A DNA stretch of 64,000 nt, taken from positions 51,274,001 to 51,338,000 of the forward strand of contig NW_027266343.1 of NCBI RefSeq assembly GCF_022045235.1. Direction: 5' to 3'. The position numbers were made by a program, and so were the translations under genes. The stretch is from Haliotis cracherodii (taxonomy: Eukaryota). Below are positions 2,898 through 61,704 of this stretch, one piece after another. Below the pieces are notes generated by a model that did not search any database, was not told the origin of the DNA, and worked only from the letters and a program-made list of their open reading frames with translations. Each line of letters starts with the position of its first letter. Position 1 is the stretch's first letter.

Positions 2898-3489
2898 ATG
2901 ATGAAGATAGTCGCCGCTCTTGTTGCCTGCCTGGCTGTTACCGCCTTTGCCGAGCCTACCGGTCTGTATGGTGGAATTGGCGGGTTGAAAGGAGGACTGG
3001 GCGGAATTGGCTACGGAATGGGTGGATTGTACGGAGGCCTTGGAGGTCTGTACGGAGGCTATGGAGGTCTGTATGGAGGCATGGGAGGTCTATACGGAGG
3101 CGTGGGAGGTCTATACGGAGGCGTGGGAGGTCTATACGGAGGCATGGGAGGTCTGTACGGAGGACTTGGAGGCTATGGTGGTCTCTACGGCGGAATTGGA
3201 GGATACGGAATGGGATTGGGAAAAGGTATTTCACAAAATATGATATCATTTGTTTATCGTATCCCACTTTCAGTCTCGTTTGCAAAATTATATAATTTAC
3301 CTATATGGTATTATTATTTTACGCGACAAAGCTGATGACTTTTACAAAACATCTTTAAAATTATTCTCTGCATTCTCTAATATTTGGTTTAGCTTATCAT
3401 GCAGCTAGTTTCAAGACTTCGTTGTGACTTATCCATATATCCCAACTTTATTCTACTATTTTTTTGTTTCAGGTATCGGCTATTATTGA
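2898..3489 (+). CDS. Secreted Gly/Tyr-rich GGLYGGX-repeat protein, copy 1 (114 aa; join 2898-3225, 3473-3489)
   Basis: Signal peptide MMKIVAALVACLAVTAFA|EP followed by 21-bp coding repeats. Phase-1 intron AAG|GTATTT...TTTTGTTTCAG|GT ATC GGC TAT TAT TGA gives the C-terminus GKGIGYY. AATAAA at 3555. Confidence 0.92.
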
Positions 3490-3554
3490 GTTATTATCAT
3501 CTACAGTGTGATGCTGGCTATTTATGTATATTCTCAAACCAATGGAATTGGTTC

Positions 3555-3560
3555 AATAAA
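3555..3560 (+). terminator. Polyadenylation signal AATAAA of copy 1 (present in all copies except copy 10)
   Basis: AATAAA 65 nt after the spliced stop codon, followed by T-rich sequence. Confidence 0.75.
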
Positions 3561-6500
3561 ATCTTGTCATATTTATTTACGCCTTGAAATTTGTTTGAGA
3601 ATCTGAAAACTGAATTGAATGTTCACAATGGAAGAGTGATCTATGTTTCTCCATATTGTAAACTCTGGACATTGTACGTGTTGTAGACCAATATCCAAGC
3701 ACTTAAATGATATTGCGTTTTACTTCAAGCTAAGATATCAACTACTGAAATGTGTATTAAGTTCCTTAGGAAACCGGACATGATGATAAGAGGAGGGATT
3801 TTATGCTTGATATATCTCCCACAAAATGTCACTTACCCGAGTTCATGTTTCACGGGAATGTATCATTTGGGCTGCCACGAAAGGGTTTGATGGCCATTTG
3901 AAGTACCATAATATCTGCAATTGGCTGTCTGTATTTCAATTTGCATTTTAAAAACACGCAGCGAAACAAATAAGCAGGGGTATCAATTTTGGTCAAAGCG
4001 TTCATTAACGGGATCAAGGGGTAGACAGTGTGCACTGTATTGAAATTCAAATGTGTGTGCTGTCCTTGAAAATGAGCGAAAGTTGTATTCAGAATACAAT
4101 CTACATGTTGTTATGGCGCTTTGTATAAATAATATCTGAGCTGCTGCAATGAAACAGCGAAAGCCATGGTGATGTAGAGCATCAAAACAAATGTTGCAAG
4201 ATTCCTACTGCTTTGGTTAGAAGAGAATGCATACAGTTGGAATTTCCATGACAGTAACATATCTTTACAGTTTATTAATAACACAAACAAAACGATCGAA
4301 TTCAAAAGTAACTATTGAATACGCTTGTCCGGGTGTAGCTTATCAAACTACAAATTATTTGTAATTTCCATCAAACATGTACTTCTTGATTTGATGATGC
4401 AATTTAACTTTTTGCATACTGCTTATGTAATTAATAGGAGAAGTATCTATATAGATATATAGTTGTGTGTTTATTAACCACCTTCCCTGTAGGCGCTATT
4501 TGTAAAATACATATTGATTAAATCAGACCGCGAAGTTTAAGATTCCGAACTGGATTGGTAGGATTGAAGATTACAATAAACAAACAAATAGCTAATATAT
4601 CCCTTTTGTTGGATTACAACGCAAAAGTGACAATCATTTATCAATACAAAGGAGATTGCATTTGGTAACTGTAGAGAGTGAAATTCAGCGGAATAAATGG
4701 TCCAACTTTAAAGCCTGTCATAAGTCTTTCTAACAACAACCAGACTGTAAAAACAAGTCGTTTGATCATGTCTATCTTTGAAAACACCTTTGTGTTATAC
4801 TTTAAGAGCATTTTCTTCTGAAAACACACGTCTTTACTTTTAGATGTACGGTTTTTCTGGGAAACCCTTATATAGTTACACATTGTCAAACTGATTTGCG
4901 CGTGTTTTATTCTTGGTATGAGTTTTGGTTTAAACACGCCTTAAAAGAACACAGTCATCACTGTCACTACTGCTTCATCATGTCAAGGGCATACTTAAAG
5001 GGTAGCGGCGATTTATATTCTTTCTTCTAATGTTTAGAACCAAAGACTCACCCGAAGATTAAAACACGTTAAAGTGAGTTATTTGCAACAGTGATTAAGT
5101 ATATATGCAAATGTATGAATGGCTGAGACATTGTCAAAAGACAACATTCTCCCAATCTGGCACACAATGGAACTGACGGAGGAGCTCATGAAACACCCAA
5201 CAAATATATACAAATATAAACTATTCATTAACACCTGGTGACATCACTTATATTCAGTATATGTTTTAGCACAATCTTGCCTTTTACACCCAATGAAATC
5301 TGTTTCAACAGATAATGGAGCCTGATTTTTCTCTGGCGTTGACGATTTATGTAGTTAAAGGGTCATCATTGAATGATTATTATATCAATATTCAGGCGTT
5401 ATCTATAGAAATTGAGATAACAAATTGAGTGATGCTCGTATTATTACAAATGCCTTGATAATGAAGTGTACAATTATCAAGATGATATGTTGAAAATAAG
5501 AGAGTTCTCTCAAGAAACGCAGTTGCAAATAAAAGCCACATAACCCTGTTCAGAATCATTCGAAACCTCTGCTCGAAGCAAAGACTATTGTACGATTTCG
5601 ACTTTAATGATCACACGCATGTGCGTAGGAATGACTACCAGATAGTGATGATACCTGGCGGTTGCCAAAAAGTAAGCGTATCCTGCCCCAACGGTTCCTC
5701 CGTCACAAACACATACAAAGACGAGAAAACAAGCTGTTGTTCATATGTCAATCATGTTTTCAGAAGATATTGGTGTACTTTAGGCTTTTAACAGATATTA
5801 CACGCATAAAAAGATGTTGTGAGTATTCATAGTGACAGTCCCTTTGTGAGAAGAAACCAATATATGTACCTATCAGTTAGGAAATAAAGCTGTTGTAGTT
5901 TATTGTTATTGTGCAGTAAGATAAATAAAATTCGGGGAGAATAATGTAGTATCTGGGGACTTCTGCAGTATATTCAGCAGAAGCTATTTTCTTGTGAGCA
6001 GGCTGCTGTATTACACGGAAACGGTTAGTATAGTTGACCCCGTGTGGTACAGTGCTACTGCTGTACTGTGGTGAGGCTGTACTAGTGTGTTGCGTCAGTT
6101 TTCTGGTCTCTTGTTATGTCGTATCACACAGATGCATTATAATGTCTGATGTATGCTGCTCCCACATCATATATTTACTGGATACACCCTTTTCAGACCG
6201 TTATCGAATATTTACTTGATATAGGTTAAACGTTGAGTATCGAGGACTGTTTGAAATGCAGTTAGACGATGCCAGAGAGAGTGTGTCTGTTTGCCACCTT
6301 TATATACGTTGTCTTGTACTTCCTTAATCGATGTTCATGTATATCAGCTCGCATGTGTACCCGTAGGGTGATAACCTCGGGCCCTTTGATGCGAAAAGAA
6401 TGCATACTTTACACCATTAAACTGAGGTTCGTTACTTACCTGGAAGTGGCCAGCCAAAGATAAATCAATCACGTATAATTCACAAATGGTATATATAAAG

Positions 6501-6864
6501 GATGGGGGAAACTGTTCCATCATCTCTTATCTTCACCTGCCGTTGAGACACAGATACGAGTCAAGACCAAACTGTAAGTACTATTTTAAGGTTTGCTTGT
6601 GATATATATGTATACTTTTAATGTTTGATTCATCTGCTGCCCATCTGGCTGTTTTCAATCTTTATGTTGAGCTAATTCATAAAAGTACAAATATGTAACA
6701 TAAAACGTTCTTGTAAATTGGGAAATATATGAATGCAGGTGAAAGTAAAACTGATAACATAATTCACAATGAGTGGTGTAAACTGAATGTACCAGATGAG
6801 TAACGATAACATGCTATTTCCCTTTCTTGACAACGATTTTCACTTTACTCAACAGATACTCAAA

Positions 6865-7477
6865 ATGATGAAGATAGTCGCCGCTCTTGTTGCCTGCCTG
6901 GCTGTTACCGCTTTTGCCGAGCCTACCGGTCTGTATGGTGGAATTGGCGGGTTGAAAGGAGGACTGGGCGGAATTGGCTACGGAATGGGTGGATTGTACG
7001 GAGGCCTTGGAGGTCTGTACGGAGGCTATGGAGGTCTGTACGGAGGCATGGGAGGTCTATACGGAGGCGTGGGAGGTCTATACGGAGGCGTGGGAGGTCT
7101 ATACGGAGGCGTGGGAGGTCTATACGGAGGCATGGGAGGTCTGTACGGAGGACTTGGAGGCTATGGTGGTCTCTACGGCGGAATTGGAGGATACGGAATG
7201 GGATTGGGAAAAGGTATTTCACAAAATATGATATCATTTGTTTATCGTATCCCACTTTCAGTCTCGTTTGCAAAATTATATAATTTACCTATATGGTATT
7301 ATTATTTTACGCGACAAAGCTGATGACTTTTACAAAACATCTTTAAAATTATTCTCTGCATTCTCTAATATTTGGTTTAGCTTATCATGCAGCTAGTTTC
7401 AAGACTTCGTTGTGACTTATCCATATATCCCAACTTTATTCTACTATTTTTTTGTTTCAGGTATCGGCTATTATTGA
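6865..7477 (+). CDS. Gly/Tyr-rich secreted protein, copy 2 (121 aa; join 6865-7213, 7461-7477)
   Basis: Same exon structure as copy 1, with one extra GGLYGGV heptad. Confidence 0.92.
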
Positions 7478-10400
7478 GTTATTATCATCTACAGTGTGAT
7501 GCTGGCTATTTATGTATATTCTCAAACCAATGGAATTGGTTCAATAAAATCTTGTCATATTTATTTACGCCTTGAAATTTGTTTGAGAATCTGAAAACTG
7601 AATTGAATGTTCACAATGGAAGAGTGATCTATGTTTCTCCATATTGTAAACTCTGGACATAGTACGTGTTGTAGACCAATATCCAAGCACTTAAATGATA
7701 TTGCGTTTCACTTCAAGCTAAGATATCAACTACTGAAATGTGTATTAAGTTCCTGAGGAAACCGGACATGATGATAAGAGGAGGGATTTTATGCTTGATA
7801 TATCTCTCAACAAAATGTCACTTACCCGAGTTCATGTTTCACGGGAATGTATCATTTGGGCTGCCACGAAAGGGTTTGATGGCCATTTGAAGTACCATAA
7901 TATCTGCAATTGGCTGTCTGTATTTCAATTTGCATTTTAAAAACACGCAGCGAAACAAATAAGCAGGGGTATCAATTTTGGTCAAAGCGTTCATTAACGG
8001 GATCAAGGGGTAGACAGTGTGCACTGTATTGAAATGCAAATGTGTGTGCTGTCCTTGAAAATGAGCGAAAGTTGTATTCAGAATACAATCTACATGTTGT
8101 TATGGCGCTTTGTATAAATAATATCTGAGCTGCTGCAATGAAACAGCGAAAGCCATGGTGATGTAGAGCATCAAAACAAATGTTGCAAGATTCTTACTGC
8201 TTTGGTTAGAAAGGAATGCATACAGTTGGAATTTCCATGACAGTAAAATATCTTTACAGTTTATTAATAACACAAACAAAACGATTGAATTCAAAAGTAA
8301 CTATTAAAAACGCTTGTCCGGGTGTAGCTTATCAAACTACAAATTATTTGTAATTTCCATCAAACATGTACTTCTTGATTTGATGATGCAATTTAACATT
8401 TTGCATACTGCTTATGTAATTAATAGGAGAAGTATCTATATAGATATATAGTTGTGTGTTTATTAACCACCTTCCCTGTAGGCGCTATTTGTAAAATACA
8501 TATTGATTAAATCAGACCGCAAAGTTTAAGATTCCGAACTGGATTGGTAGGATTGAAGATTACAATAAACAAACAAATAGCTAATATATCCCTTTTGTTT
8601 GATTACAACGCAAAAGTGACAATCATTTATCAATACAAAGGAGATTGCATTTGGTAACTGTAGAGAGTGAAATTCAGCGGAATAAATGGTCCAACTTTAA
8701 AGCCTGTCATAAGTCTTTATAACAACAACCAGACTGTAAAAACAAGTCGTTTGATCATGTCTATCTTTGAAAACACCTTTGTGTTATACTTTAAGAGCAT
8801 TTTCTTCTGAAAACACACGTCTTTACTTTTAGATGTACGGTTTTTCTGGGAAACCCTTATATAGTTACACATTGTCAAACTGATTTGCGCGTGTTTTATT
8901 CTTGGTATGAGTTTTGGTTTAAACACGCCTTAAAAGAACACAGTCATCACTGTCACTACTGCTTCATAATGTCAAGGGCATACTTAAAGGGTAGCGGCGA
9001 TTTATATTCTTTCTTCTAATGTTTAGAACCAAAGACTCACCCGAAGATTAAAACACGTTAAAGTGAGTTATTTGCAACAGTGATTAAGTATATATGCAAA
9101 TGTATGAATGGCTGAGACATTGTCAAAAGACAACATTCTCCCAATCTGGCACACAATGGAACTGACGGAGGAGCTCATGAAACACCCAACAAATATATAC
9201 AAATATAAACTATTCATTAACACCTGGTGACATCACTTATATTCAGTATATGTTTTAGCACAATCTTGCCTTTTACACCCAATAAATTCTGTTTCAACAG
9301 ATAATGGAGCCTGATTTTTCTCTGGCGTTGACGATTTATGTAGTTAAAGGGTCATCATTGAATGATTATTATATCAATATTCAGGCGTTATCTATAGAAA
9401 TTGAGATAACAAATTGAGTGATGCTCGTATTATTACAAATGCCTTGATAATGAAGTGTACAATTATCAAGATGATATGTTGAAAATAAGAGAGTTCTCTC
9501 AAGAAACGCAGTTGCAAATAAAAGCCACATAACCCTGTTCAGAATCATTCGAAACCTCTGCTCGAAGCAAAGACTATTGTACGATTTCGACTTTAATGAT
9601 CACACGCATGTGCGTAGGAATGACTACCAGATAGTGATGATACCTGGCGGTTGCCAAAAAGTAAGCGTATCCTGCCCCAACGGTTCCTCCGTCACAAACA
9701 CATACAAAGACGAGAAAACAAGCTGTTGTTCATATGTCAATCATGTTTTCAGAAGATATTGGTGTACTTTAGGCTTTTAACAGATATTACACGCATAAAA
9801 AGATGTTGTGAGTATTCATAGTGACAGTCCCTTTGTGAGAAGAAACCAATATATGTACCTATCAGTTAGGAAATAAAGCTGTTGTAGTTTATTGTTATTG
9901 TGCAGTAAGATAAATAAAATTCGGGGAGAATAATGTAGTATCTGGGGACTTCTGCAGTATATTCAGCAGAAGCTATTTTCTTGTGAGCAGGCTGCTGTAT
10001 TACACGGAAACGGTTAGCATAGTTGACCCCGTGTGGTACAGTGCTACTGCTGTACTGTGGTGAGGCTGTACTAGTGTGTTGCGTCAGTTTTCTGGTCTCT
10101 TGTTATGTCGTATCACACAGATGCATTATAATGTCTGATGTATGCTGCTCCCACATCATATATTTACTGGATACACCCTTTTCAGACCGTTATCGAATAT
10201 TTACTTGATATAGGTTAAACGTTGAGTATCGAGGACTGTTTGAAATGCAGTTAGACGATGCCAGAGAGAGTGTGTCTGTTTGCCACCTTTATATACGTTG
10301 TCTTGTACTTCCTTAATCGATGTTCATGTATATCAGCTCGCATGTGTACCCGTAGGGTGATAACCTCGGGCCCTTTGATGCGAAAAGAATGCATACTTTA

Positions 10401-10853
10401 CACCATTAAACTGAGGTTCGTTACTTACCTGGAAGTGGCCAGCCAAAGATAAATCAATCACGTATAATTCACAAATGGTATATATAAAGGATGGGGGAAA
10501 CTGTTCCATCATCTCTTATCTTCACCTGCCGTTGAGACACAGATACGAGTCAAGACCAAACTGTAAGTACTATTTTAAGGTTTGCTTGTGATATATATGT
10601 ATACTTTTAATGTTTGATTCATCTGCTGCCCATCTGGCTGTTTTCAATCTTTATGTTGAGCTAATTCATAAAAGTACAAATATGTAACATAAAACGTTCT
10701 TGTAAATTGGGAAATATATGAATGCAGGTGAAAGTAAAACTGATAACATAATTCACAATGAGTGGTGTAAACTGAATGTACCAGATGAGTAACGATAACA
10801 TGCTATTTCCCTTTCTTGACAACGATTTTCACTTTACTCAACAGATACTCAAA

Positions 10854-11466
10854 ATGATGAAGATAGTCGCCGCTCTTGTTGCCTGCCTGGCTGTTACCGC
10901 TTTTGCCGAGCCTACCGGTCTGTATGGTGGAATTGGCGGGTTGAAAGGAGGACTGGGCGGAATTGGCTACGGAATGGGTGGATTGTACGGAGGCCTTGGA
11001 GGTCTGTACGGAGGCTATGGAGGTCTGTACGGAGGCATGGGAGGTCTATACGGAGGCGTGGGAGGTCTATACGGAGGCGTGGGAGGTCTATACGGAGGCG
11101 TGGGAGGTCTATACGGAGGCATGGGAGGTCTGTACGGAGGACTTGGAGGCTATGGTGGTCTCTACGGCGGAATTGGAGGATACGGAATGGGATTGGGAAA
11201 AGGTATTTCACAAAATATGATATCATTTGTTTATCGTATCCCACTTTCAGTCTCGTTTGCAAAATTATATAATTTACCTATATGGTATTATTATTTTACG
11301 CGACAAAGCTGATGACTTTTACAAAACATCTTTAAAATTATTCTCTGCATTCTCTAATATTTGGTTTAGCTTATCATGCAGCTAGTTTCAAGACTTCGTT
11401 GTGACTTATCCATATATCCCAACTTTATTCTACTATTTTTTTGTTTCAGGTATCGGCTATTATTGA
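10854..11466 (+). CDS. Gly/Tyr-rich secreted protein, copy 3 (121 aa; join 10854-11202, 11450-11466)
   Basis: Same structure; protein identical to copy 2. Confidence 0.92.
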
Positions 11467-14400
11467 GTTATTATCATCTACAGTGTGATGCTGGCTATTT
11501 ATGTATATTCTCAAACCAATGGAATTGGTTCAATAAAATCTTGTCATATTTATTTACGCCTTGAAATTTGTTTGAGAATCTGAAAACTGAATTGAATGTT
11601 CACAATGGAAGAGTGATCTATGTTTCTCCATATTGTAAACTCTGGACATAGTACGTGTTGTAGACCAATATCCAAGCACTTAAATGATATTGCGTTTCAC
11701 TTCAAGCTAAGATATCAACTACTGAAATGTGTATTAAGTTCCTGAGGAAACCGGACATGATGATAAGAGGAGGGATTTTATGCTTGATATATCTCTCAAC
11801 AAAATGTCACTTACCCGAGTTCATGTTTCACGGGAATGTATCATTTGGGCTGCCACGAAAGGGTTTGATGGCCATTTGAAGTACCATAATATCTGCAATT
11901 GGCTGTCTGTATTTCAATTTGCATTTTAAAAACACGCAGCGAAACAAATAAGCAGGGGTATCAATTTTGGTCAAATCGTTCATTAACGGGATCAAGGGGT
12001 AGACAGTGTGCACTGTATTGAAATGCAAATGTGTGTGCTGTCCTTGAAAATGAGCGAAAGTTGTATTCAGAATACAATCTACATGTTGTTATGGCGCTTT
12101 GTATAAATAATATCTGAGCTGCTGCAATGAAACAGCGAAAGCCATGGTGATGTAGAGCATCAAAACAAATGTTGCAAGATTCTTACTGCTTTGGTTAGAA
12201 AGGAATGCATACAGTTGGAATTTCCATGACAGTAAAATATCTTTACAGTTTATTAATAACACAAACAAAACGATTGAATTCAAAAGTAACTATTAAAAAC
12301 GCTTGTCCGGGTGTAGCTTATCAAACTACAAATTATTTGTAATTTCCATCAAACATGTACTTCTTGATTTGATGATGCAATTTAACATTTTGCATACTGC
12401 TTATGTAATTAATAGGAGAAGTATCTATATAGATATATAGTTGTGTGTTTATTAACCACCTTCCCTGTAGGCGCTATTTGTAAAATACATATTGATTAAA
12501 TCAGACCGCAAAGTTTAAGATTCCGAACTGGATTGGTAGGATTGAAGATTACAATAAACAAACAAATAGCTAATATATCCCTTTTGTTTGATTACAACGC
12601 AAAAGTGACAATCATTTATCAATACAAAGGAGATTGCATTTGGTAACTGTAGAGAGTGAAATTCAGCGGAATAAATGGTCCAACTTTAAAGCCTGTCATA
12701 AGTCTTTATAACAACAACCAGACTGTAAAAACAAGTCGTTTGATCATGTCTATCTTTGAAAACACCTTTGTGTTATACTTTAAGAGCATTTTCTTCTGAA
12801 AACACACGTCTTTACTTTTAGATGTACGGTTTTTCTGGGAAACCCTTATATAGTTACACATTGTCAAACTGATTTGCGCGTGTTTTATTCTTGGTATGAG
12901 TTTTGGTTTAAACACGCCTTAAAAGAACACAGTCATCACTGTCACTACTGCTTCATCATGTCAAGGGCATACTTAAAGGGTAGCGGCGATTTATATTCTT
13001 TCTTCTAATGTTTAGAACCAAAGACTCACCCGAAGATTAAAACATGTTAAAGTGAGTTATTTGCAACAGTGATTAAGTATATATGCAAATGTATGAATGG
13101 CTGAGACATTGTCAAAAGACAACATTCTCCCAATCTGGCACACAATGGAACTGACGGAGGAGCTCATGAAACACCCAACAAATATATACAAATATAAACT
13201 ATTCATTAACACCTGGTGACATCACTTATATTCAGTATATGTTTTAGCACAATCTTGCCTTTTACACCCAATGAAATCTGTTTCAACAGATAATGGAGCC
13301 TGATTTTTCTCTGGCGTTGACGATTTATGTAGTTAAAGGGTCATCATTGAATGATTATTATATCAATATTCAGGCGTTATCTATAGAAATTGAGATAACA
13401 AATTGAGTGATGCTCGTATTATTACAAATGCCTTGATAATGAAGTGTACAATTATCAAGATGATATGTTGAAAATAAGAGAGTTCTCTCAAGAAACGCAG
13501 TTGCAAATAAAAGCCACATAACCCTGTTCAGAATCATTCGAAACCTCTGCTCGAAGCAAAGACTATTGTACGATTTCGACTTTAATGATCACACGCATGT
13601 GCGTAGGAATGACTACCAGATAGTGATGATACCTGGCGGTTGCCAAAAAGTAAGCGTATCCTGCCCCAACGGTTCCTCCATCACAAACACATACGAAGAC
13701 GAGAAAACAAGCTGTTGTTCATATGTCAATCATGTTTTCAGAAGATATTGGTGTACTTTAGGCTTTTAACAGATATTACACGCATAAAAAGATGTTGTGA
13801 GTATTCATAGTGACAGTCCCTTTGTGAGAAGAAACCAATATATGTACCTATCAGTTAGGAAATAAAGCTGTTGTAGTTTATTGTTATTGTGCAGTAAGAT
13901 AAATAAAATTCGGGGAGAATAATGTAGTATCTGGGGACTTCTGCAGTATATTCAGCAGAAGCTATTTTCTTGTGAGCAGGCTGCTGTATTACACGGAAAC
14001 GGTTAGCATAGTTGACCCCGTGTGGTACAGTGCTACTGCTGTACTGTGGTGAGGCTGTACTAGTGTGTTGCGTCAGTTTTCTGGTCTCTTGTTATGTCGT
14101 ATCACACAGATGCATTATAATGTCTGATGTATGCTGCTCCCACATCATATATTTACTGGATACACCCTTTTCAGACCGTTATCGAATATTTACTTGATAT
14201 AGGTTAAACGTTGAGTATCGAGGACTGTTTGAAATGCAGTTAGACGATGCCAGAGAGAGTGTGTCTGTTTGCCACCTTTATATACGTTGTCTTGTACTTC
14301 CTACATCGATGTTCATGTATATCAGCTCGCATGTGTACCCGTAGGGTGATAACCTCGGGCCCTTTGATGCGAAAAGAATGCTTACTTTACACCATTAAAC

Positions 14401-14842
14401 TGAGGTGCGTTACTTACCTGGAAGTGGCCAGCCAAAGATAAATCAATCACGTATAATTCACAAATGGTATATATAAAGGATGGGGGAAACTGTTCCATCA
14501 TCTCTTATCTTCACCTGCCGTTGAGACACAGATACGAGTCAAGACCAAACTGTAAGTACTATTTTAAGGTTTGCTTGTGATATATATGTATACTTTTAAT
14601 GTTTGATTCATCTGCTGCCCATCTGGCTGTTTTCAATCTTTATGTTGAGCTAATTCATAAAAGTACAAATATGTAACATAAAACGTTCTTGTAAATTGGG
14701 AAATATATGAATGCAGGTGAAAGTAAAACTGATAACATAATTCACAATGAGTGGTGTGAACTGAATGTACCAGATGAGTAACGATAACATGCTATTTCCC
14801 TTTCTTGACAACGATTTTCACTTTACTCAACAGATACTCAAA

Positions 14843-15539
14843 ATGATGAAGATAGTCGCCGCTCTTGTTGCCTGCCTGGCTGTTACCGCCTTTGCCGAGC
14901 CTACCGGTCTGTATGGTGGAATTGGCGGGTTGAAAGGAGGACTGGGCGGAATTGGCTACGGAATGGGTGGATTGTACGGAGGCCTTGGAGGTCTGTACGG
15001 AGGCTATGGAGGTCTGTACGGAGGCATGGGAGGTCTATGTGGAGGCGTGGGAGGTCTATACGGAGGCGTGGGAGGTCTATACGGAGGCGTGGGAGGTCTA
15101 TACGGAGGCATGGGAGGTCTATGTGGAGGCGTGGGAGGTCTATACGGAGGCGTGGGAGGTCTATACGGAGGCGTGGGAGGTCTATACGGAGGCATGGGAG
15201 GTCTGTACGGAGGACTTGGAGGCTATGGTGGTCTCTACGGCGGAATTGGAGGATACGGAATGGGATTGGGAAAAGGTATTTCACAAAATATGATATCATT
15301 TGTTTATCGTATCCCACTTTCAGTCTCGTTTGCAAAATTATATAATTTACCTATATGGTATTATTATTTTACGCGACAAAGCTGATGACTTTTACAAAAC
15401 ATCTTTAAAATTATTCTCTGCATTCTCTAATATTTGGTTTAGCTTATCATGCAGCTAGTTTCAAGACTTCGTTGTGACTTATCCATATATCCCAACTTTA
15501 TTCTACTATTTTTTTGTTTCAGGTATCGGCTATTATTGA
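14843..15539 (+). CDS. Gly/Tyr-rich secreted protein, copy 4, long Cys-containing variant (149 aa; join 14843-15275, 15523-15539)
   Basis: Four extra heptads, and two GGLCGG units with TGT at 15038 and 15122. Confidence 0.92.
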
Positions 15540-37080: not shown

Positions 37081-37093
37081 CGAGGACGTCATT

Positions 37094-37109: not shown

Positions 37110-37111
37110 TG

Positions 37112-48600: not shown

Positions 48601-49047
48601 ACTGAGGTGCGTTACTTACCTGGAAGTGGCCAGCCAAAGATAAATCAATCACGTATAATTCACAAATGGTATATATAAAGGATGGGGGAAACTGTTCCAT
48701 CATCTCTTATCTTCACCTGCCGTTGAGACACAGATACGAGTCAAGACCAAACTGTAAGTACTATTTTAAGGTTTGCTTGTGATATATATGTATACTTTTA
48801 ATGTTTGATTCATCTGCTGCGCATCTGGCTGTTTTCAATCTTTATGTTGAGCCAATTCATAAAAGTACAAATATGTAACATAAAACGTTCTTGTAAATTG
48901 GGAAATATATGAATGCAGGTGAAAGTAAAACTGATAACATAATTCACAATGAGTGGTGTGAACTGAATGTACCAGATAAGTGACGATAACATGCTATTTC
49001 CCTTTCTTGACAACGATTTTCACGTTATTCAACAGATACTCAAAAAG

Positions 49048-49658: not shown

Positions 49659-52600
49659 GTTATTATCATCTACAGTGTGATGCTGGCTATTTATGTATAT
49701 TCTCAAACCAATGGAATTGGTTCTTTAAAATCTTGTCATATTTATTTACGCCTTGAAATTTGTTTGAGAATCTGAAAACTGAATTGAATGTTCACAATGG
49801 AAGAGTGATCTATGTTTCTCCATATTGTAAACTCTGGACATAGTACGTGTTGTAGACCAATATCCAAGCACTTAAATGATATTGCGTTTTACTTCAAGCT
49901 AAGATATCAACTACTGAAATGTGTATTAAGTTCCTGAGGAAACCGGACATGATGATAAGAGGAGGGATTTTATGCTTGATATATCTCCCACAAAATGTCA
50001 CTTACCCGAGTTCATGTTTCACGGGAATGTATCATTTGGGCTGCCATGAAAGGGTTTGATGGCCATTTGAAGTACCATAATATCTGCAATTGGCTGTCTG
50101 TATTTCAATTTGCATTTTAAAAACACGCAGCGAAACAAATAAGCAGGGGTATCAATTTTGGTCAAAGCGTTCATTAACGGGATCAAGGGGTAGACAGTGT
50201 GCACTGTATTGAAATTCAAATGTGTGTGCTGTCCTTGAAAATGAGCGAAAGTTGTAGAAAGAATACAATCTATATGTTGTTATGGTGCTTTGTATAAATA
50301 ATATCTGAGCTGCTGCAATGAAACAGCGAAAGCCATGGTGATGTAGAGCATCAAAACAAATGTTGCAAGATTCTTACTGCTTTGGTTAGAAGGGAATGCA
50401 TACAGTTGGAATTTCCATGACAGTAAAATATCTTTACAGTTTATTAATAACACAAACAAAACGATTGAATTCAACAGTAACTATTAAAAACGCTTGTCCG
50501 GGTGTAGCTTATCAAACTACAAATTATTTGTAATTTCCATCAAACATGTACTTCTTGATTTGATGATGCAATTTAACATTTTGCATACTGCTTATGTAAT
50601 TAATAGGAGAAGTATCTATATAGATGTATAGTTGTGTGTTTATTAACCACCTTCCCTGTAGGCGCTATTTGTAAAATACATATTGATTAAATCAGACCGC
50701 AAAGTTTAAGATTCCGAACTGGATTGGTAGGATTGAAGATTACAATAAACAAACAAATAGCTAATATATCCCTTTTGTTTGATTACAACGCAAAAGTGAC
50801 AATCATTTATCAATACAAAGGAGATTGCATTTGGTAACTGTAGAGAGTTATGTTTAGCTGAATAAATGGTCCAACTTTAAAGCTTGCCATAAGTCTTTAT
50901 AACAACAACCAGACTGTAAAAACAAGTCGTTTGATCATGTCTATCTTTGAAAACACCTTTGTGTTATACTTTAAGAGCATTTTCTTCTGAAAACACACGT
51001 CTTTACTTTTAGATGTACGGTTTTTCTGGGAAACCCTTATACACTTACACATTGACACGAATGTCAAACTGATTTGCGCGTGTTTTATTCTTGGTATGAG
51101 TTTTGGTTTAAACACGCCTTAAAAGAACACAGTCATCACCATCACTATCACTACTGCTTCATCATGTCAAGGGCATACTTAAAGGGTAGAGGCGATTTAT
51201 ATTCTTTCTTCTAATGTTTAGAACCAAAGACTCACCCGAAGATTAAAACACGTTAAAGTGAGTTATTTGCAACAGTGATTAAGTATATATGCAAATGTAT
51301 GAATGGCTGAGACATTGTCAAAAGACAACATTCTCCCAATCTGGCACACAATGGAACTGACGGAGGAGCTCATGAAACACCCAACAAATATATACAAATA
51401 TAAACTATTCATTAACACCTGGTGACATCTTTCATATTCAGTATATGTTTTAGCACAATCTTGCCTTTTACACCAAATGAAATCTGTTTCAGCAGATAAT
51501 GGAGCCTGATTATTCTCTGGCGTTGACGATTTATGTAGTTAAAGGGTCATCATTGAATGATTATTATATCAATATTCAGGCGTTATCTATAGAAATTGAG
51601 ATAACAAATTGAGTGATGCTCGTATTATTACAAATGCCTTGATAATGAAGTGTACAATTATCAAGATGATATGTTGAAAATAAGAGAGTTCTCTCAAGAA
51701 ACGCAGTTGCAAATAAAAGCTACATAACCCTGTTCAGAATCATTCGAAACCTCTGCTCGAAGCAAAGACCATTGTACGATTTCGACTTTAATGATCACAC
51801 GCATGTGCGTAGGAATGACTACCAGATAGTGATGATACCTGGCGGTTGCCAAAAAGTGAGCGTATCCTGCCCCAACGGTTCCTCCGTCACAAACACATAC
51901 AAAGACAAGTCAAGAAAGACGAGAAAACAAGCTGTTGTTCATATGTCAATCATGTTTTCAGAAGATATTGGTGTACTTTAGGCTTTTAACAGATATTACA
52001 CGCATAAAAAGATGTTGTGCACGTGAGTATTCATAGTGACAGTCCCTTTGTGAGAAGAAACCAATATATGTACCTATCAGTCAGGAAATAAAGCTGTTGT
52101 AGTTTATTGTTATTGTGCAGTAAGATAAATAAAATTCGGGGAGAATAATGTAGTATCTGGGGACTTCTGCAGTATATTCAGCAGAAGCTATTTTCTTGTG
52201 AGCAGGCTGCTGTATTACACGGAAACGGTTAGCATAGTTGACCCCGTGTGGTACAGTGCTACTGCTGTACTGTGGTGAGGCTGTACTAGTGTGTTGCGTC
52301 AGTTTTCTGGTCTCTTGTTATGTCGTATCACACAGATGCATTATAATGTCTGATGTATGCTGCTCCCACATCATATATTTACTGGATACACCCTTTTCAG
52401 ACCGTTATCGAATATTTACTTGATATAGGTTAAACGTTGAGTATCGAGGACTGTTTGAAATGCAGTTAGACGATGCCAGAGAGAGTGTGTCTGTTTGCCA
52501 CCTTTATATACGTTGTCTTGTACTTCCTTAATCGATGTTCATGTATATCAGCTCGCATGTGTACCCGTAGGGTGATAACCTCGGGCCCTTTGATGCGAAA

Positions 52601-53068
52601 AGAATGCTTACTTTACACCATTAAACTGAGGTGCGTTACTTACCTGGAAGTGGCCAGCCAAAGATAAATCAATCACGTATAATTCACAAATGGTATATAT
52701 AAAGGATGGGGGAAACTGTTCCATCATCTCTTATCTTCACCTGCCTTTGAGACACAGATACGAGTCAAGACCAAACTGTAAGTACTATTTTAAGGTTTGC
52801 TTGTGATATATATGTATACTTTTAATGTTTGATTCATCTGCTGAGCATCTGGCTGTTTTCAATCTTTATGTTGAGCCAATTCATAAAAGTACAAATATGT
52901 AACATAAAACGTTCTTGTAAATTGGGAAATATATGAATGAAGGTGAAAGTAAAACTGATAACATAATTCACAATGAGTGGTGTGAACTGAATGTACCAGA
53001 TAAGTAACGATAACATGCTATTTCCCATTCTTGACAACGATTTTCACGTTACTCAATAGATACTCAAA

Positions 53069-53681
53069 ATGATGAAGATAGTCGCCGCTCTTGTTGCCTG
53101 CCTGGCTGTTACCGCCTTTGCCGAGCCTACCGGTCTGTATGGTGGAATTGGCGGGTTGAAAGGAGGACTGGGCGGAATTGGCTACGGAATGGGTGGATTG
53201 TACGGAGGCCTTGGAGGTCTGTACGGAGGCTATGGAGGTCTGTACGGAGGCATGGGTGGTCTATACGGAGGCGTGGGAGGTCTATACGGAGGCGTGGGAG
53301 GTCTATACGGAGGCGTGGGAGGTCTATACGGAGGCATGGGAGGTCTGTACGGAGGACTTGGAGGCTATGGTGGTCTCTACGGCGGAATTGGAGGATACGG
53401 AATGGGATTGGGAAAAGGTATTTCACAAAATATGATATCATTTGTTTATCGTATCCCACTTTCAGTCTCGTTTGCAAAATTATATAATTTACCTATATGG
53501 TATTATTATTTTACGTGACAAAGCTGATGACTTTTACAAAACATCTTTAAAATTATTCTCTGCTTTCTCTAATATTTGGTTTAGCTTATCATGCAGCTAG
53601 TTTCAAGACTTCGTTGTGACTTATCCATATATCCCAACTTTATTCTACTATTTTTTTGTTTCAGGTATCGGCTATTATTGA
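53069..53681 (+). CDS. Gly/Tyr-rich secreted protein, copy 11 (121 aa; join 53069-53417, 53665-53681)
   Basis: Same structure. Confidence 0.92.
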
Positions 53682-56600
53682 GTTATTATCATCTACAGTG
53701 TGATGCTGGCTATTTATGTATATTCTCAAACCAATGGAATTGGTTCAATAAAATCTTGTCATATTTATTTACGCCTTGAAATTTGTTTGAGAATCTGAAA
53801 ACTGAATTGAATGTTCACAATGGAAGAGTGATCTATGTTTCTCCATATTGTAAACTCTGGACATAGTACGTGTTGTAGACCAATATCCAAGCACTTAAAT
53901 GATATTGCGTTTTACTTCAAGCTAAGATATCAACTACTGAAATGTGTATTAAGTTCCTGAGGAAACCGGACATGATGATAAGAGGAGGGATTTTATGCTT
54001 GATATATCTCCCACAAAATGTCACTTACCCGAGTTCATGTTTCACGGGAATGTATCATTTGGGCTGCCATGAAAGGGTTTGATGGCCATTTGAAGTACCA
54101 TAATATCTGCAATTGGCTGCCTGTATTTCAATTTGCATTTTAAAAACACGCAGCGAAACAAATAAGCAGGGGTATCAATTTTGGTCAAAGCGTTCATTAA
54201 CGGGATCAAGGGGTAGACAGTGTGCACTGTATTGAAATTCAAATGTGTGTGCTGTCCTTGAAAATGAGCGAAAGTTGTATTCAGAATACAATCTACATGT
54301 TGTTATGGTTCTCTGTATAAATAATATCTGAGCTGCTGCAATGAAACAGCGAAAGCCATGGTAATGTAGAGCATCAAAACAAATGTTGCAAGATTCTTAC
54401 TGCTTTGGTTAGAAGGGAATGCATACAGTTGGAATTTCCATGACAGTAAAATATCTTTACAGTTTATTAATAACACAAACAAAACGATTGAATTCAACAG
54501 TAACTATTAAATACGCTTGTCCGGGTGTAGCTTATCAAACTACAAATTATTTGTAATTTCCATCAAACATGTACTTCTTTATTTGATGATGCAATTTAAC
54601 ATTTTGCATACTGCTTATGTAATTAATAGGAGAAGTATCTTTGTGTATATATAGTTGTGTGTTTACTAACCACCTTCCCTGTAGGCGCTATTTGTAAAAT
54701 ACATATTGATTAAATCAGACCGCGAAGTTTAAGATTCCGAACTGGATTGGTAGGATTGAAGATTACAATAAACAAACAAATAGCTAATATATCCCTTTTG
54801 TTGGATTACAACGCAAAAGTGACAATCATTTATCAATACAAAGGAGATTGCATTTGGAAACTGTAGAGAGTTAAGTTTAGCTGAATAAATGGTCAACTTT
54901 AAAGCTTGTCATAAGTCTTTATAACAACAACCAGACTGTAAAAACAAGTCGTTTGATCATGTCTATCTTTGAAAACACCTTTGTGTTATACTTTAAGAGC
55001 ATTTTCTTCTGAAAACACATGTCTTTACTTTTAGATGTACGGTTTTTCTGGGAAACCCTTATACACTTACACATTGACACGAATGTCAAACTGATTTGCG
55101 CGTGTTTTATTCTTGGTATGAGTTTTGGTTTAAACACGCCTTAAAAGAACACAGTCATCACCATCACTATCACTACTGCTTCATCATGTCAAGGGCATAC
55201 TTAAAGGGTAGAGGCGATTTATATTCTTTCTTCTAATGTTTAGAACCAAAGACTCACCCGAAGATTAAAACACGTTAAAGTGAGTTATTTGCAAGAGTGA
55301 TTAAGTATATATGCAAATGTATGAATGGCTGAGACATTGTCAAAAGACAACATTCTCCCAATCTGGCACACAATGGAACTGACGGAGGAGCTCATGAAAC
55401 ACCCAACAAATATATACAAATATAAACTATTCATTAACACCTGGTGACATCACTCATATTCAGTATATGTTTTAGCACAATCTTGCCTTTTACACCAAAT
55501 GAAATCTGTTTCAGCAGATAATGGAGCCTGATTATTCTCTGGCGTTGACGATTTATGTAGTTAAAGGGTCATCATTGAATGATTATTATATCAATATTCA
55601 GGCGTTATCTATAGAAATTGAGATAACAAATTGAGTGATGCTCGTATTAGTACAAATGCCTTGATAATGAAGTGTACAATTATCAAGATGATATGTTGAA
55701 AATAAGAGAGTTCTCTCAAGAAACGCAGTTGCAAATAAAAGCCACATAACCCTGTTCAGAATCATTCGAAACCTCTGCTCGAAGCAAAGACCATTGTACG
55801 ATTTCGACTTTAATGATCACACGCATGTGCGTAGGAATGACTACCAGATAGTGATGATACCTGGCGGTTGCCAAAAAGTAAGCGTATCCTGCCCCAACGG
55901 TTCCTCCGTCACAAACACATACAAAGACAAGTCAAGAAAGACGAGAAAACAAGCTGTTGTTCATATGTCAATCATGTTTTCAGAAGATATTGGTGTACTT
56001 TAGGCTTTTAACAGATATTACACGCATAAAAAGATGTTGTGAGTATTCATAGTGACAGTCCCTTTGTGAGAAGAAACCAATATATGTACCTATCAGTTAG
56101 GAAATAAAGCTGTTGTAGTTTATTGTTATTGTGCAGTAAGATAAATAAAATTCGGGGAGAATAATGTAGTATCTGGGGACTTCTGCAGTATATTCAGCAG
56201 AAGCTATTTTCTTGTGAGCAGGCTGCTGTATTACACGGAAACGGTTAGCATAGTTGACCCCGTGTGGTACAGTGCTACTGCTGTACTGTGGTGAGGCTGT
56301 ACTAGTGTGTTGCGTCAGTTTTCTGGTCTCTTGTTATGTCGTATCACACAGATGCATTATAATGTCTGATGTATGCTGCTCCCACATCATATATTTACTG
56401 GATACACCCTTTTCAGACCGTTATCGAATATTTACTTGATATAGGTTAAACGTTGAGTATCGAGGACTGTTTGAAATGCAGTTAGACGATGCCAGAGAGA
56501 GTGTGTCTGTTTGCCACCTTTATATACGTTGTCTTGTACTTCCTTAATCGATGTTCATGTATACCAGCTCGCATGTGTACCCGTAGGGTGATAACCTCGG

Positions 56601-57084
56601 GCCCTTTGATACGAAAAGAATGCTTACTTTACACCATTAAACTGAGGTGCGTTACTTACCTGGAAGTGGCCAGCCAAAGATAAATCAATCACGTATAATT
56701 CACAAATGGTATATATAAAGGATGGAGGAAACTGTTCCATCATCTCTTATCTTCACCTGCTTTTGAGACACAGATACGAGTCAAGACCAAACTGTAAGTA
56801 CTATTTTAAGGTTTGCTTGTGATATATATGTATACTTTTAATGTTTGATTCATCTGCTGAGCATCTGGCTGTTTTCAATCTTTATGTTGAGCCAATTCAT
56901 AAAAGTACAAATATGTAACATAAAACGTTCTTGTAAATTGGGAAATATATGAATGAAGGTGAAAGTAAAACTGATAACATAGTTCACAATGAGTGGTGTG
57001 AACTGAATTTACCAGATGAGTAACGATAACATGCTATTTCCCTTTCTTGACAACGATTTTCACGTTACTCAATAGATACTCAAA

Positions 57085-57697
57085 ATGATGAAGATAGTCG
57101 CCGCTCTTGTTGCCTGCCTGGCTGTTACCGCCTTTGCCGAGCCTACCGGTCTGTATGGTGGAATTGGCGGGTTGAAAGGAGGACTGGGCGGAATTGGCTA
57201 CGGAATGGGTGGATTGTACGGAGGCCTTGGAGGTCTGTACGGAGGCTATGGAGGTCTGTACGGAGGCATGGGAGGTCTATACGGAGGCGTGGGAGGTCTA
57301 TACGGAGGCGTGGGAGGTCTATACGGAGGCATGGGAGGTCTATACGGAGGCATGGGAGGTCTGTACGGAGGACTTGGAGGCTATGGTGGTCTCTACGGCG
57401 GAATTGGAGGATACGGAATGGGATTGGGAAAAGGTATTTCACAAAATATGATATCATTTGTTTATCGTATCCCACTTTCAGTCTCGTTTGCAAAATTATA
57501 TAATTTACCTATATGGTATTATTATTTTACGTGACAAAGCTGATGACTTTTACAAAACATCTTTAAAATTATTCTCTGCATTCTCTAATATTTGGTTTAG
57601 CTTATCATGCAGCTAGTTTCAAGACTTCGTTGTGACTTATCCATATATCCCAACTTTATTCTACTATTTTTTTGTTTCAGGTATCGGCTATTATTGA
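57085..57697 (+). CDS. Gly/Tyr-rich secreted protein, copy 12 (121 aa, V->M heptad variant; join 57085-57433, 57681-57697)
   Basis: Same structure; heptad X series L-Y-M-V-V-M-M-L. Confidence 0.92.
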
Positions 57698-60600
57698 GTT
57701 ATTATCATCTACAGTGTGATGCTGGCTATTTATGTATATTCTCAAACCAATGGAATTGGTTCAATAAAATCTTGTCATATTTATTTACGCCTTGAAATTT
57801 GTTTGAGAATCTGAAAACTGAATTGAATGTTCACAATGGAAGAGTGATCTATGTTTCTCCATATTGTAAACTCTGGACATAGTACGTGTTGTAGACCAAT
57901 ATCCAAGCACTTAAATAATATTGCGTTTTACTTCAAGCTAAGATATCAACTACTGAAATGTGTATTAAGTTCCTGAGGAAACCGGACATGATGATAAGAG
58001 GAGGGATTTTATGCTTGATATATCTCCCACAAAATGTCACTTACCCGAGTTCATGTTTCAGGGGAATGTATCATTTGGGCTGCCACGAAAGGGTTTGATG
58101 GCCATTTGAAGTACCATAATATCTGCAATTGGCTGTCCGTATTTCAATTTGCATTTTAAAAACACGCAGCGAAACAAATAAGCAGGGGTATCAATTTTGG
58201 TCAAAGCGTTCATTAACTTGATCAAGGGGTAGACAGTGTGCACTGTATTGAAATTCAAATGTGTGTGCTGTCCTTGAAAATGAGCGAAAGTTGTATTCAG
58301 AATACCATATACATGTTGTTATGGTGCTCTGTATAAATAATATCTGAGCTGCTGCAATGAAACAGCGAAAGCCATGGTGATGTAGAGCATCAAAACAAAT
58401 GTTGCAAGATTCTTACTGCTTTGGTTAGAAGGGAAATTCAATGCATACAGTTGGAATTTCCATGACAGTAAAATATCTTTACAGTTTATTAATAACACAA
58501 ACAAAACGATTGAATTCAACAGTAACTATTAAATACGCTTGTCCGGGTGTAGCTTATCAAACTACAAATTATTTGTAATTTCCATCAAACATGTACTTCT
58601 TGATTTGATGATGCAATTTAACATTTTGCATACTGCTTATGTAATTAATAGGAGAAGTATCTTTGTGTGTATATATAGTTGTGTGTTTACTAACCACCTT
58701 CCCTGTAGGCGCTATTTGTAAAATACATATTGATTAAATCAGACCGCGAAGTTTAAGATTCCGAACTGGATTGGTAGGATTGAAGATTACAATAAACAAA
58801 CAAATAGCTAATATATCCCTTTTGTTGGATTACAACGCAAAAGTGACAATCATTTATCAATACAAAGGAGATTGCATTTGGAAACTGTAGAGAGTTAAGT
58901 TTAGCTGAATAAATGGTCCAACTTTGAAGCTTGTCATAAGTCTTTATAACAACAACCAGACTGTAAAAACAAGTCGTTTGATCATGTCTATCTTTGAAAA
59001 CACCTTTGTGTTATACTTTAAGAGCATTTTCTTCTGAAAACACATGTCTTTACTTTTAGATGTACGGTTTTTCTGGGAAACCCTTATACACTTACACATT
59101 GACACGAATGTCAAACTGATTTGCGCGTGTTTTATTCTTGGTATGAGTTTTGGTTTAAACACGCCTTAAAAGAACACAGTCATCACCATCACTATCACTA
59201 CTGCTTCATCATGTCAAGGGCATACTTAAAGGGTAGAGGCGATTTATATTCTTTCTTCTAATGTTTAGAACCAAAGACTCACCCGAAGATTAAAACACGA
59301 TAAAGTGAGTTATTTGCAACAGTGATTAAGTATATATGCAAATGTATGAATGGCTGAGACATTGTCAAAAGACAACATTCTCCCAATCTGGCACACAATG
59401 GAACTGACGGAGGAGCTCATGAAACACCCAACAAATATATACAAATATAAACTATTCATTAACACCTGGTGACATCACTCATATTCAGTATATGTTTTAG
59501 CACAATCTTGCCTTTTACACCCAATGAAATCTGTTTCAGCAGATAATGGAGCCTGATTATTCTCTGGCGTTGACGATTTATGTAGTTAAAGGGTCATCAT
59601 TGAATGATTATTATATCAATATTCAGGCGTTATCTATAGAAATTGAGATAACAAATTGAGTGATGCTCGTATTAGTACAAATGCCTTGATAATGAAGTGT
59701 ACAATTATCAAGATGATATGTTGAAAATAAGAGAGTTCTCTCAAGAAACGCAGTTGCAAATAAAAGCCACATAACCCTGTTCAGAATCATTCGAAACCTC
59801 TGCTCGAAGCAAAGACCATTGTACGATTTCGACTTTAATGATCACATGCATGTGCGTAGGAATGACTACCAGATAGTGATGATACCTGGCGGTTGCCAAA
59901 AAGTAAGCGTATCCTGCCCCAACGGTTCCTCCGTCACAAACACATACAAAGACAAGTCAAGAAAGACGAGAAAACAAGCTGTTGTTCATATGTCAATCAT
60001 GTTTTCAGAAGATATTGGTGTACTTTAGGCTTTTAACAGATATTACACGCATAAAAAGATGTTGTGAGTATTCATAGTGACAGTCCCTTTGTGAGAAGAA
60101 ACCAATATATGTACCTATCAGTCAGGAAATAAAGCTGTTGTAGTTTATTGTTATTGTGCAGTAAGATAAATAAAATTCGGGGAGAATAATGTAGTATCTG
60201 GGGACTTCTGCAGTATATTCAGCAGAAGCTATTTTCTTGTGAGCAGGCTGCTGTATTACACGGAAACGGTTAGCATAGTTGACCCCGTGTGGTACAGTGC
60301 TACTGCTGTACTGTGGTGAGGCTGTACTAGTGTGTTGCGTCAGTTTTCTGGTCTCTTGTTATGTCGTATCACACAGATGCATTATAATGTCTGATGTATG
60401 CTGCTCCCACATCATATATTTACTGGATACACCCTTTTCAGACCGTTATCGAATATTTACTTGATATAGCTAGGTTAAACGTTGAGTATCGAGGACTGTT
60501 TGAAATGCAGTTAGACGATGCCAGAGAGAGTGTGTCTGTTTGCCACCTTTATATACGTTGTCTTGTACTTCCTTAATCGATGTTCATGTATATCAGCTCG

Positions 60601-61113
60601 CATGTGTACCCGTAGGGTGATAACCTCGGGCCCTTTGATGCGAAAAGAATGCTTACTTTACACCATTAAACTGAGGTGCGTTACTTACCTGGAAGTGGCC
60701 AGCCAAAGATAAATCAATCACGTATAATTCACAAATGGTATATATAAAGGATGGGGGAAACTGTTCCATCATCTCTTATCTTCACCTGCCTTTGAGACAC
60801 AGATACGAGTCAAGACCAAACTGTAAGTACTATTTTAAGGTTTGCTTGTGATATATATGTATACTTTTAATGTTTGATTCATCTGCTGAGCATCTGGCTG
60901 TTTTCAATCTTTATGTTGAGCCAATTCATAAAAGTACAAATATGTAACATAAAACGTTCTTGTAAATTGGGAAATATATGAATGAAGGTGAAAGTAAAAC
61001 TGATAACATAATTCACAATGAGTGGTGTGAACTGAATTTACCAGATGAGTAACGATAACATGCTATTTCCCTTTCTTGACAACGATTTTCACGTTACTCA
61101 ATAGATACTCAAA

Positions 61114-61704
61114 ATGATGAAGATAGTCGCCGCTCTTGTTGCCTGCCTGGCTGTTACCGCCTTTGCCGAGCCTACCGGTCTGTATGGTGGAATTGGCGGG
61201 TTGAAAGGAGGACTGGGCGGAATTGGCTACGGAATGGGTGGATTGTACGGAGGCCTTGGAGGTCTGTACGGAGGCTATGGAGGTCTGTACGGAGGCATGG
61301 GAGGTCTATACGGAGGCGTGGGAGGTCTATACGGAGGCGTGGGAGGTCTATACGGAGGCATGGGAGGTCTGTACGGAGGACTTGGAGGCTATGGTGGTCT
61401 CTACGGCGGAATTGGAGGATACGGAATGGGATTGGGAAAAGGTATTTCACAAAATATGATATCATTTGTTTATCGTATCCCACTTTCAGTCTCGTTTGCA
61501 AAATTATATAACTTACCTATGTGGTATTATTAATTACGCGACAAAGCTGATGACATTTACAAAATATCTTTACAATTATTCTCTGCTTTCTCTAATATTT
61601 GGTTTAGCTTATCATGCAGCTAGTTTCAAGACTTCGTTGTGACTTATCCATATATCCCAACTTTATTCTACTCTGTTTTTGTTTCAGGTATCGGCTATTA
61701 TTGA
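61114..61704 (+). CDS. Gly/Tyr-rich secreted protein, copy 13 (114 aa; join 61114-61441, 61688-61704)
   Basis: Same structure. Intron 2 and the 3' UTR are more diverged, but splice sites and the GIGYY exon are intact. Confidence 0.92.

Follow-up and report, generated by a model that had tools for sequence, protein, structure and literature searches.

We found that a 64,000-nucleotide stretch of the Haliotis cracherodii genome (contig NW_027266343.1, positions 51,274,001 to 51,338,000 of the forward strand; hereafter the window, numbered 1 to 64,000) is a tandem array of 13 gene-bearing units, arranged head-to-tail and each about 4.0 kb long, that encode near-identical copies of a small protein rich in glycine and tyrosine. 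To judge from its sequence, the product is very probably a secreted structural protein of some kind. By analogy with studied gastropod proteins, the chances are about even that it serves as the bulk precursor of a tyrosine-cross-linked organic layer, the periostracum or the larval shell skin.

Organisation of the array and its genes

A six-frame scan of the window recovered the protein start MKIVA and the end GIGYY 13 times each, on the forward strand only. The first ATG lies at 2898 (copy 1) and the final stop codon ends at 61704 (copy 13), the same span that an earlier, sequence-only reading of this DNA had assigned to the array; the span also includes a 9,554-bp long terminal repeat (LTR) retrotransposon. 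Without inserts, the units measure 3,988–4,102 bp. When one unit of 3,967 bp was used as a BLASTN query, it matched the entire window at 96–100% identity, two insertions excepted, and whole-unit matches of this quality over about 4 kb exclude chance. Since both ends of the window fall in spacer, the array continues on either side and 13 copies is a minimum. The array is homogenised and repeats its whole spacer, which bears out the amplification in the manner of ribosomal DNA (rDNA) or histone genes that had been proposed. No RNA genes were detected in the window by an Rfam gathering scan (0 matches) or by ARAGORN (0 genes).

All 13 copies share the same anatomy. Each unit contains, in order, an identical TATATATAAAGG box, a GTAAGT donor about 83 nt downstream of it, an AG acceptor 9 nt 5' of the first codon, the coding exon, a GT-AG intron of 246–248 nt, a last exon that carries the final five codons plus the stop codon, and a poly(A) signal. 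From the donor and acceptor upstream of the ATG we infer a non-coding exon 1 followed by a first intron. In copy 1 (2524–3560, forward strand; intact, 114 amino acids), the TATA box is at 2524, the putative exon 1 ends at 2606, and introns at 2607–2888 and 3226–3472 flank exon 2 (2889–3225), which holds the ATG at 2898 and a predicted signal peptide at 2898–2951; the last exon (GIGYY and stop) lies at 3473–3489 and the AATAAA signal at 3555. The last splice is supported because the H. asinina orthologue described below ends in GLGKGIGYY, the spliced end, and because the stop codon of the unspliced tail shifts between copies; a reading with the intron retained, which would add a tail of 32–38 residues, was rejected on these grounds. 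Open reading frames in alternative frames and on the minus strand across the repeat were set aside as shadows of the glycine-codon repeat.

Eleven of the 13 copies, all on the forward strand, are intact, and their coding length varies by whole heptads. Products of 114 amino acids (n = 3) are encoded by copy 1, copy 6 (22672–23709, ATG 23047) and copy 13 (60739–61775, ATG 61114, stop ending at 61704). Those of 121 amino acids (n = 6) come from copy 2 (6490–7548, ATG 6865, stop ending at 7477), copy 3 (10479–11537, ATG 10854), copy 7 (26674–27732, ATG 27049), copy 8 (40255–41313, ATG 40630), copy 11 (52694–53752, ATG 53069) and copy 12 (56710–57768, ATG 57085), the last with one Val to Met heptad. 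The longest products, of 149 amino acids (n = 2), are encoded by copy 4 (14468–15610, ATG 14843), which has two Tyr to Cys heptads, and copy 5 (18570–19712, ATG 18945), whose coding sequence is the same. The two damaged copies are copy 9 (44278–45707), broken after codon 27 by an insert resembling a short interspersed element (SINE), within which the frame stops to give an 87-residue product, and copy 10 (48670–49729), in which the first ATG is AAG, the frame is open from a second ATG at 49048 (120 amino acids) and AATAAA has become TTTAAA. Copy 10 is possibly impaired. The earlier description of at least 13 near-identical TATA-driven genes therefore holds for the 13 units and their common TATATATAAAGG box, but only 11 of these genes are fully intact.

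As a separate observation, about 50 nt 5' of the TATA box (2470–2535 in copy 1) are invariant across the 13 units, an invariance that may lie at chance level. This stretch contains GGAAGT and GATA as well as minus-strand TGATTGAT/TGATTTAT motifs, all of which we take to resemble ETS, GATA and Pbx-Hox sites.

A glycine- and tyrosine-rich protein with a predicted signal peptide

The predicted mature form of the copy 1 protein has 96 residues, with 52 Gly, 15 Tyr, 2 Lys and a single acidic residue, Glu, exactly as counted before. Across copies the mature chain is 96–131 residues long, with 54–55% Gly, 14–16% Tyr, a net charge of +1 and an isoelectric point (pI) of 8.0–8.2; it contains 0 Ala, 0 Ser, 0 His, 1 Pro and no Arg or Trp, and each copy has 8–13 GGL[YC]GG units. 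The N-terminus is hydrophobic, with 7-residue hydropathy means of up to 3.2, and ends in AFA|EP; this basic-hydrophobic-AFA arrangement is kept in the three Haliotis relatives described below. These features are consistent with the secreted, low-complexity Gly/Tyr-rich protein that had been predicted. With 54–55% Gly over the mature chain, the protein exceeds the threshold of at least 25% Gly per 80-residue window that is used for silk-like structural proteins (PMC4944945).

The absence of a globular domain was corroborated by Pfam, which returned 0 families for copy 1, for exon 2 of copy 4 and for the relatives P0001 and P0002, and two chance-level rows for the relative P0007. A sequence search of the PDB gave a single weak match, FtbJ (E 0.0019), in which no stretch passed alone, and it was disregarded. 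The Atlas look-alikes were arthropod cuticle-type proteins with scores of only 0.75–0.80, none of them reliable.

Relatives in Haliotis

With exon 2 as the query, six proteins were found at E ≤ 0.01 among 8,000 candidates, and the top two were P0001 and P0002. P0001 is a 101-residue 'glycine-rich protein-like' sequence of H. asinina, in a cluster of 4 sequences on 1 contig, and P0002 is the 'ctenidin-1-like' protein of H. rubra, whose model carries a spurious-looking 39-residue leader. P0007, the 346-residue 'shematrin-like protein 2' of H. cracherodii (a cluster of 3 sequences on one contig), topped both a representative search, in which the best 150 of 340 matches at E ≤ 0.001 were considered, and a search for longer proteins (3 of 8,000). 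All but P0007 of the eight representative-search matches examined were unrelated heptad or low-complexity repeats, and a search with the N-terminal region retrieved only P0001, among 3 candidates, and no further relative.

P0001 agrees with the array protein at 23 of the first 25 residues and at all of the last nine. Both non-repetitive ends were present in 3 of 154 fetched proteins, all from Haliotis (P0001, P0002 and P0007). These shared ends show that the protein is not an orphan. All four members have 45–55% Gly, 13–18% Tyr, exactly two Lys, no Arg and a net charge of +1 to +2, with G[LF]GKGIG near the C-terminal end and a terminal YY; in the three relatives alone, Gly is 45–53% and Tyr 13–18%, with 2 Lys each. 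The GGLYGGX heptad, by which the protein had first been described, is present in the array copies but is not family-wide, being replaced by a 9-mer in P0007 and an irregular repeat in P0001.

P0007 comprises three units, each opening with a signal peptide, with an identical linker between units, and in the complete middle unit there is a break at GK|G, the position of the last intron of the array gene. Three tandem genes have, in our reading, been fused into this one model, and the family is probably arrayed elsewhere too. The names of P0001, P0002 and P0007 are automatic similarity labels for members of the same family as the array protein. As far as these sequences indicate, the family is Haliotis-wide, a range that should be taken as a minimum. 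Automatic annotation distorts the family by giving it three names and fusing gene models, so that database counts of its members are unreliable.

We found no published study of P0001, P0002 or P0007, and a full-text literature search, with most subscription journals outside its coverage, found no paper on the family or the array. The available passages of PMC1676022, PMC3517415, PMC3374290 and the H. iris genome preprint (bioRxiv 10.64898/2026.01.03.697505) contain nothing relevant to it. Two DNA motifs and relevant names were likewise absent from 4 supplementary files on H. diversicolor larvae, an absence that is uninformative. To call this an 'undescribed system', as had been done, is nevertheless an overstatement, as relatives are held at NCBI under automatic names and both similar proteins and tandem genes have been published: secreted, Tyr-rich mantle-edge proteins with more than 50% Gly in abalone (PMC2034539) and Cepaea (PMC7894901), and shell-protein genes in tandem, for which a benefit of dosage was proposed (PMC4759782). 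The array, which belongs to an unstudied family, has unusual length and uniformity among mollusc structural genes, but every ingredient of it has a precedent; tandem Gly/Tyr structural genes are already known as a concept.

Comparison with known protein families

The array protein fits no named, characterised family, in agreement with the initial assessment: it lacks at least one defining feature of each of the shematrins, KRMP, suckerins, tsfgr1 and cationic antimicrobial peptides. Its closest studied analogue is the abalone protein Has-tsfgr1, which has 114 residues, more than 52% Gly and Gly/Leu/Tyr repeats. Has-tsfgr1 is expressed in the outer mantle fold as well as at the edge of the trochophore shell field, and its expression falls in animals larger than 20 mm (PMC2034539). 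Both are abalone proteins with a signal peptide, seven-residue Gly/Leu/Tyr repeats and C-terminal Lys and Tyr, and the array protein has GGYGMGL once near its end, close to the GGYGLGL of Has-tsfgr1. However, Has-tsfgr1 has a signal of 17 residues, GGYGLGL as its repeated motif and GYKGY as its end, whereas the array protein has GGLYGGX and GIGYY. An orthologous relationship was rejected since the GGYGLGL repeats and the GYKGY end are missing and the H. asinina orthologue is P0001; this separation is by motif description rather than alignment. The passages of that paper describe no gene array.

Pearl-oyster shematrins have Gly/Tyr-rich repeats and a basic C-terminus (RKKKY, RRKKY, RRRKY, IRRKK or PRKKY), and KRMP have a Lys/Trp domain after the signal peptide and an RKYKY-type end (PMC3896809). 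The array protein resembles shematrins in being a secreted Gly/Tyr-repeat protein with Tyr at its end and in having a Gly/Tyr-rich repeat domain, but it ends in GKGIGYY and has no Arg in the mature chain, so the basic C-terminal signature is missing. It is not a KRMP either: its mature chain has only two Lys and lacks Trp altogether, and there is neither a Lys/Trp domain nor an RKYKY-type end. Two scaffolds carry five shematrin genes in tandem (PMC4759782); both the shematrin and KRMP families are bivalve, whereas the array is gastropod, with at least 13 copies that are 98–99.9% alike over gene and spacer. The top-ranking mantle transcripts of the zebra mussel include 'shematrin-like' proteins that cannot be aligned (PMC9210306).

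Squid suckerins combine a disordered GGLY-type segment with alternating Ala/His-rich crystalline blocks bounded by Pro (PMC6393770). The GGLYGG motif of the array protein equals their disordered Gly/Tyr segment, but with 0 Ala, 0 Ser, 0 His and 1 Pro it has no crystal-forming block; it is therefore not a suckerin and cannot cross-link via suckerin beta-nanocrystals. Two H. asinina proteins reported by a silk-like screen differ from the array family (PMC4944945), and three family motifs gave 0 matches in the 7 supplementary files of that screen, SilkSlider. Silkmoth chorion, mammalian keratin-associated protein (KRTAP), bird loricrin and spider MaSp genes are reported to form tandem Gly-rich structural gene clusters under gene conversion or concerted evolution (PMC4639761, PMC4180150, PMC6447390, PMC9779670). 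Their sequences are unrelated to the array, in which a single gene type repeats with a whole 3-kb spacer, a layout nearer to that of rDNA or histone genes. By sequence, the array protein appears to resemble shematrins, tsfgr1 and the soft segment of suckerins in its working and is a member of none.

Homogenisation of the array and the origin of its copy number

Divergence between units was computed after both inserts had been excised, for 13 units and 78 pairs. Pairs differed by 0.7–18.9 substitutions per kb, with no identical pair; the mean was 6.1 per kb between adjacent units and climbed to about 16 at separations of 9–12 units (rho 0.79, permutation p 1e-4). Divergence that increases with distance indicates local unequal crossing-over or conversion. 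Variable sites made up 8 of 366 coding and 145 of 3,622 non-coding positions (p = 0.087), a difference that does not establish purifying selection. Both gaps in coding sequence had lengths divisible by 21 nt, whereas of the 16 non-coding gaps, 12 had lengths not divisible by 3. Because the drop in coding variation is non-significant, dosage selection behind the copy number is plausible at most.

The gene may instead be functional but its high copy number neutral and recent, a side effect of unequal crossing-over that the internal 21-bp repeat would have helped along. This explanation, which is compatible with any role of the protein, we regard as possible rather than likely. It is consistent with the non-significant coding constraint, with spacers that are homogenised as the genes are (nucleotide diversity 0.0115 in spacers versus 0.0055–0.008 in genes), with the two damaged copies and with the presence of two transposons in the youngest block, copies 7–9. 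However, 11 of 13 copies are intact with all splice and TATA signals kept, and copies recur in abalones, as three units in P0007 and as the single-contig clusters of 4 (P0001) and 3 (P0007) sequences.

Two observations concern individual units. Copies 4 and 5 (14843–15275 and 18945–19377) share a four-heptad duplication with the Tyr to Cys changes, which supply the sole mature Cys in the array, and the remainder of unit 5 is nearest to unit 6 (1.8 per kb); unit 5 is likely a recombinant. At the other end, the partial 14th spacer (61798–64000) shows 23–28 substitutions per kb against every other unit, about twice the spacer average, and the 3' untranslated region of copy 13 is diverged; an edge of the array may lie near the 3' end of the window.

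Proposed function of the array protein

Analogy with Has-tsfgr1 and with Cepaea Gly-rich-3 is the best guide to tissue. Cepaea has two proteins with more than 50% Gly and 13–19% Tyr, and one of them, Gly-rich-3, shares its expression in the periostracal groove with a peroxidase (PMC7894901). The periostracum is secreted as a soluble precursor and cross-linked by tyrosinase (PMC2896379), and extra copies of shell-protein genes have been proposed to speed shell formation (PMC4759782). On this model, cells of the shell field or mantle edge would make the array protein in bulk, and the 18-residue signal peptide would direct a flexible, near-neutral polypeptide of 9–12 kDa to the secretory pathway. 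Outside the cell the chains would pack through Leu/Tyr/Met contacts and be hardened by tyrosinase or peroxidase oxidation of their 14–16% Tyr. In quinone tanning, hardening is Tyr-based and Lys acts as quinone acceptor; the few Lys, one of which always lies several residues before the terminal YY, could play this part here. An insoluble layer free of mineral would result; the likeliest candidates are the periostracum and the organic skin of larval and juvenile shells. Many near-identical copies, kept alike by local unequal crossing-over or gene conversion, would raise output during a short burst of demand.

Several points weigh against this proposal. We found no expression data for the gene or its relatives, and because the motifs of tsfgr1 (GGYGLGL, GYKGY) differ, its expression is an analogy and not a matter of orthology. 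The two damaged copies and the non-significant purifying selection count against it as well. For the H. laevigata nacre and prism proteome (PMC6003135), all 27 supplementary files were searched and none contained any of four family motifs, whereas control motifs were recovered. This absence speaks against the protein being important within the mineral layers, although the test is weak, with trypsin predicted to cut the array protein into pieces of 13, 85 and 5 residues and with motifs that were not taken from an H. laevigata orthologue. In a study of the H. asinina shell, the periostracum was bleached away beforehand (PMC2989941).

The same chemistry might serve a different tanned structure, for example the radula (its membrane or its teeth), the jaws, the operculum of the larva, or a coat of eggs or epithelia, a reading that we consider somewhat doubtful. 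Composition alone gives no location, the family motifs are missing from the mineral-layer proteome, the Atlas look-alikes are cuticle-type proteins, albeit with low scores, and abalone veligers possess a radula and an operculum (PMC2034539). Against this, the gastropod proteins of like composition considered here map to the mantle edge or shell field, a pattern drawn from studies that were biased in having begun from mantle libraries, and Pfam detected no chitin-binding or other domain in the array protein.

A Gly-rich antimicrobial or mucus defence peptide, comparable to spider ctenidins or isopod armadillidins and amplified for immune output, is improbable. The heptad could form an amphipathic membrane helix: the Gly/non-Gly period of 3.46 residues in the array protein would set Leu, Tyr and X on one helix face, and single-sequence AlphaFold modelling of the mature chain, in agreement with this period, gave one long helix (predicted local distance difference test score, pLDDT, 79.9; predicted template-modelling score, pTM, 0.39). 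The H. rubra relative also bears the automatic name 'ctenidin-1-like'. However, a 3.5-residue period is absent from P0001 and P0007, and the model of P0001 is mostly of low confidence (pLDDT 47.6), so a long helix was rejected as a family feature and the composition and the ends, not the helix, are taken as the functional core. The net charge of +1 (pI 8.0–8.2) in the array protein, and of +1 to +2 in the family as a whole, all of whose members lack Arg, differs from the strong positive charge expected of mature Gly-rich antimicrobial peptides such as ctenidin, acanthoscurrin and armadillidin, with pI 11.4–12.1 for four armadillidin entries (PMC7017220), and this weakens the antimicrobial alternative that had been offered; moreover, the copies are homogenised rather than diversified. 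That an assembly artefact multiplied one or a few loci is highly improbable: near-identical 4-kb units are difficult to assemble, but all 13 units are distinct, their divergence rises smoothly with distance, and transposon insertions with target duplications are private to single units.

An extension of the periostracum or shell-skin proposal, speculative and in our judgement unlikely to hold in full, is that rDNA-like amplification, possibly to dozens of copies, lets a few shell-field cells of a non-feeding larva lay down, in a matter of hours, the organic covering of the first shell. What they secrete would then be a minimal natural biopolymer, equivalent to the soft Gly/Leu/Tyr segment of suckerins alone, with heptad number tuning chain length and with Lys/Tyr cross-linking ends. 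If so, the toughness of the shell coat would be set by two heritable and fast-changing quantities, the numbers of gene copies and of heptads.

Periostracum and larval shell-skin proteins of gastropods are poorly known, partly because they are cross-linked, cut poorly by trypsin and removed before shell proteomics. The locus offers a concrete candidate for such a protein, and its conserved ends are usable as probes. Should dosage selection be confirmed, the number of copies might influence the shell quality of farmed abalone. The short sequence also makes a convenient model of materials cross-linked through Tyr.

Transposon insertions in the array

A Ty3/gypsy-type LTR retrotransposon of 9,554 bp (28906–38459, forward strand) lies in the spacer between copies 7 and 8. 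Its LTRs (28906–30253 and 37112–38459) are identical, 1,348 bp each, with TG..CA ends and an AT-rich TTAGTA microsatellite in each, and the element is flanked by a 4-bp target duplication. A PNMA-like gag with a zinc knuckle (31598–32740) overlaps pol (32617–37080) in the -1 frame; both frames are open, pol is ordered protease, reverse transcriptase, RNase H and integrase, and the element thus qualifies as Ty3/gypsy. No env-like open reading frame was found within 28906–38459. The element is apparently intact and very recent, and it is a passenger outside the gene system.

The SINE-like insert in the coding exon of copy 9 (44734–45089, forward strand; 356 bp) is flanked by a 15-bp target duplication. 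It has A- and B-box-like motifs of RNA polymerase III and a CACCT-repeat tail, and is of the tRNA-derived type; its layout appears to resemble that of the molluscan RUDI/V-SINE group. Both insertions fall in the youngest block of the array, copies 7–9, whose units differ by 0.7–1.5 substitutions per kb.

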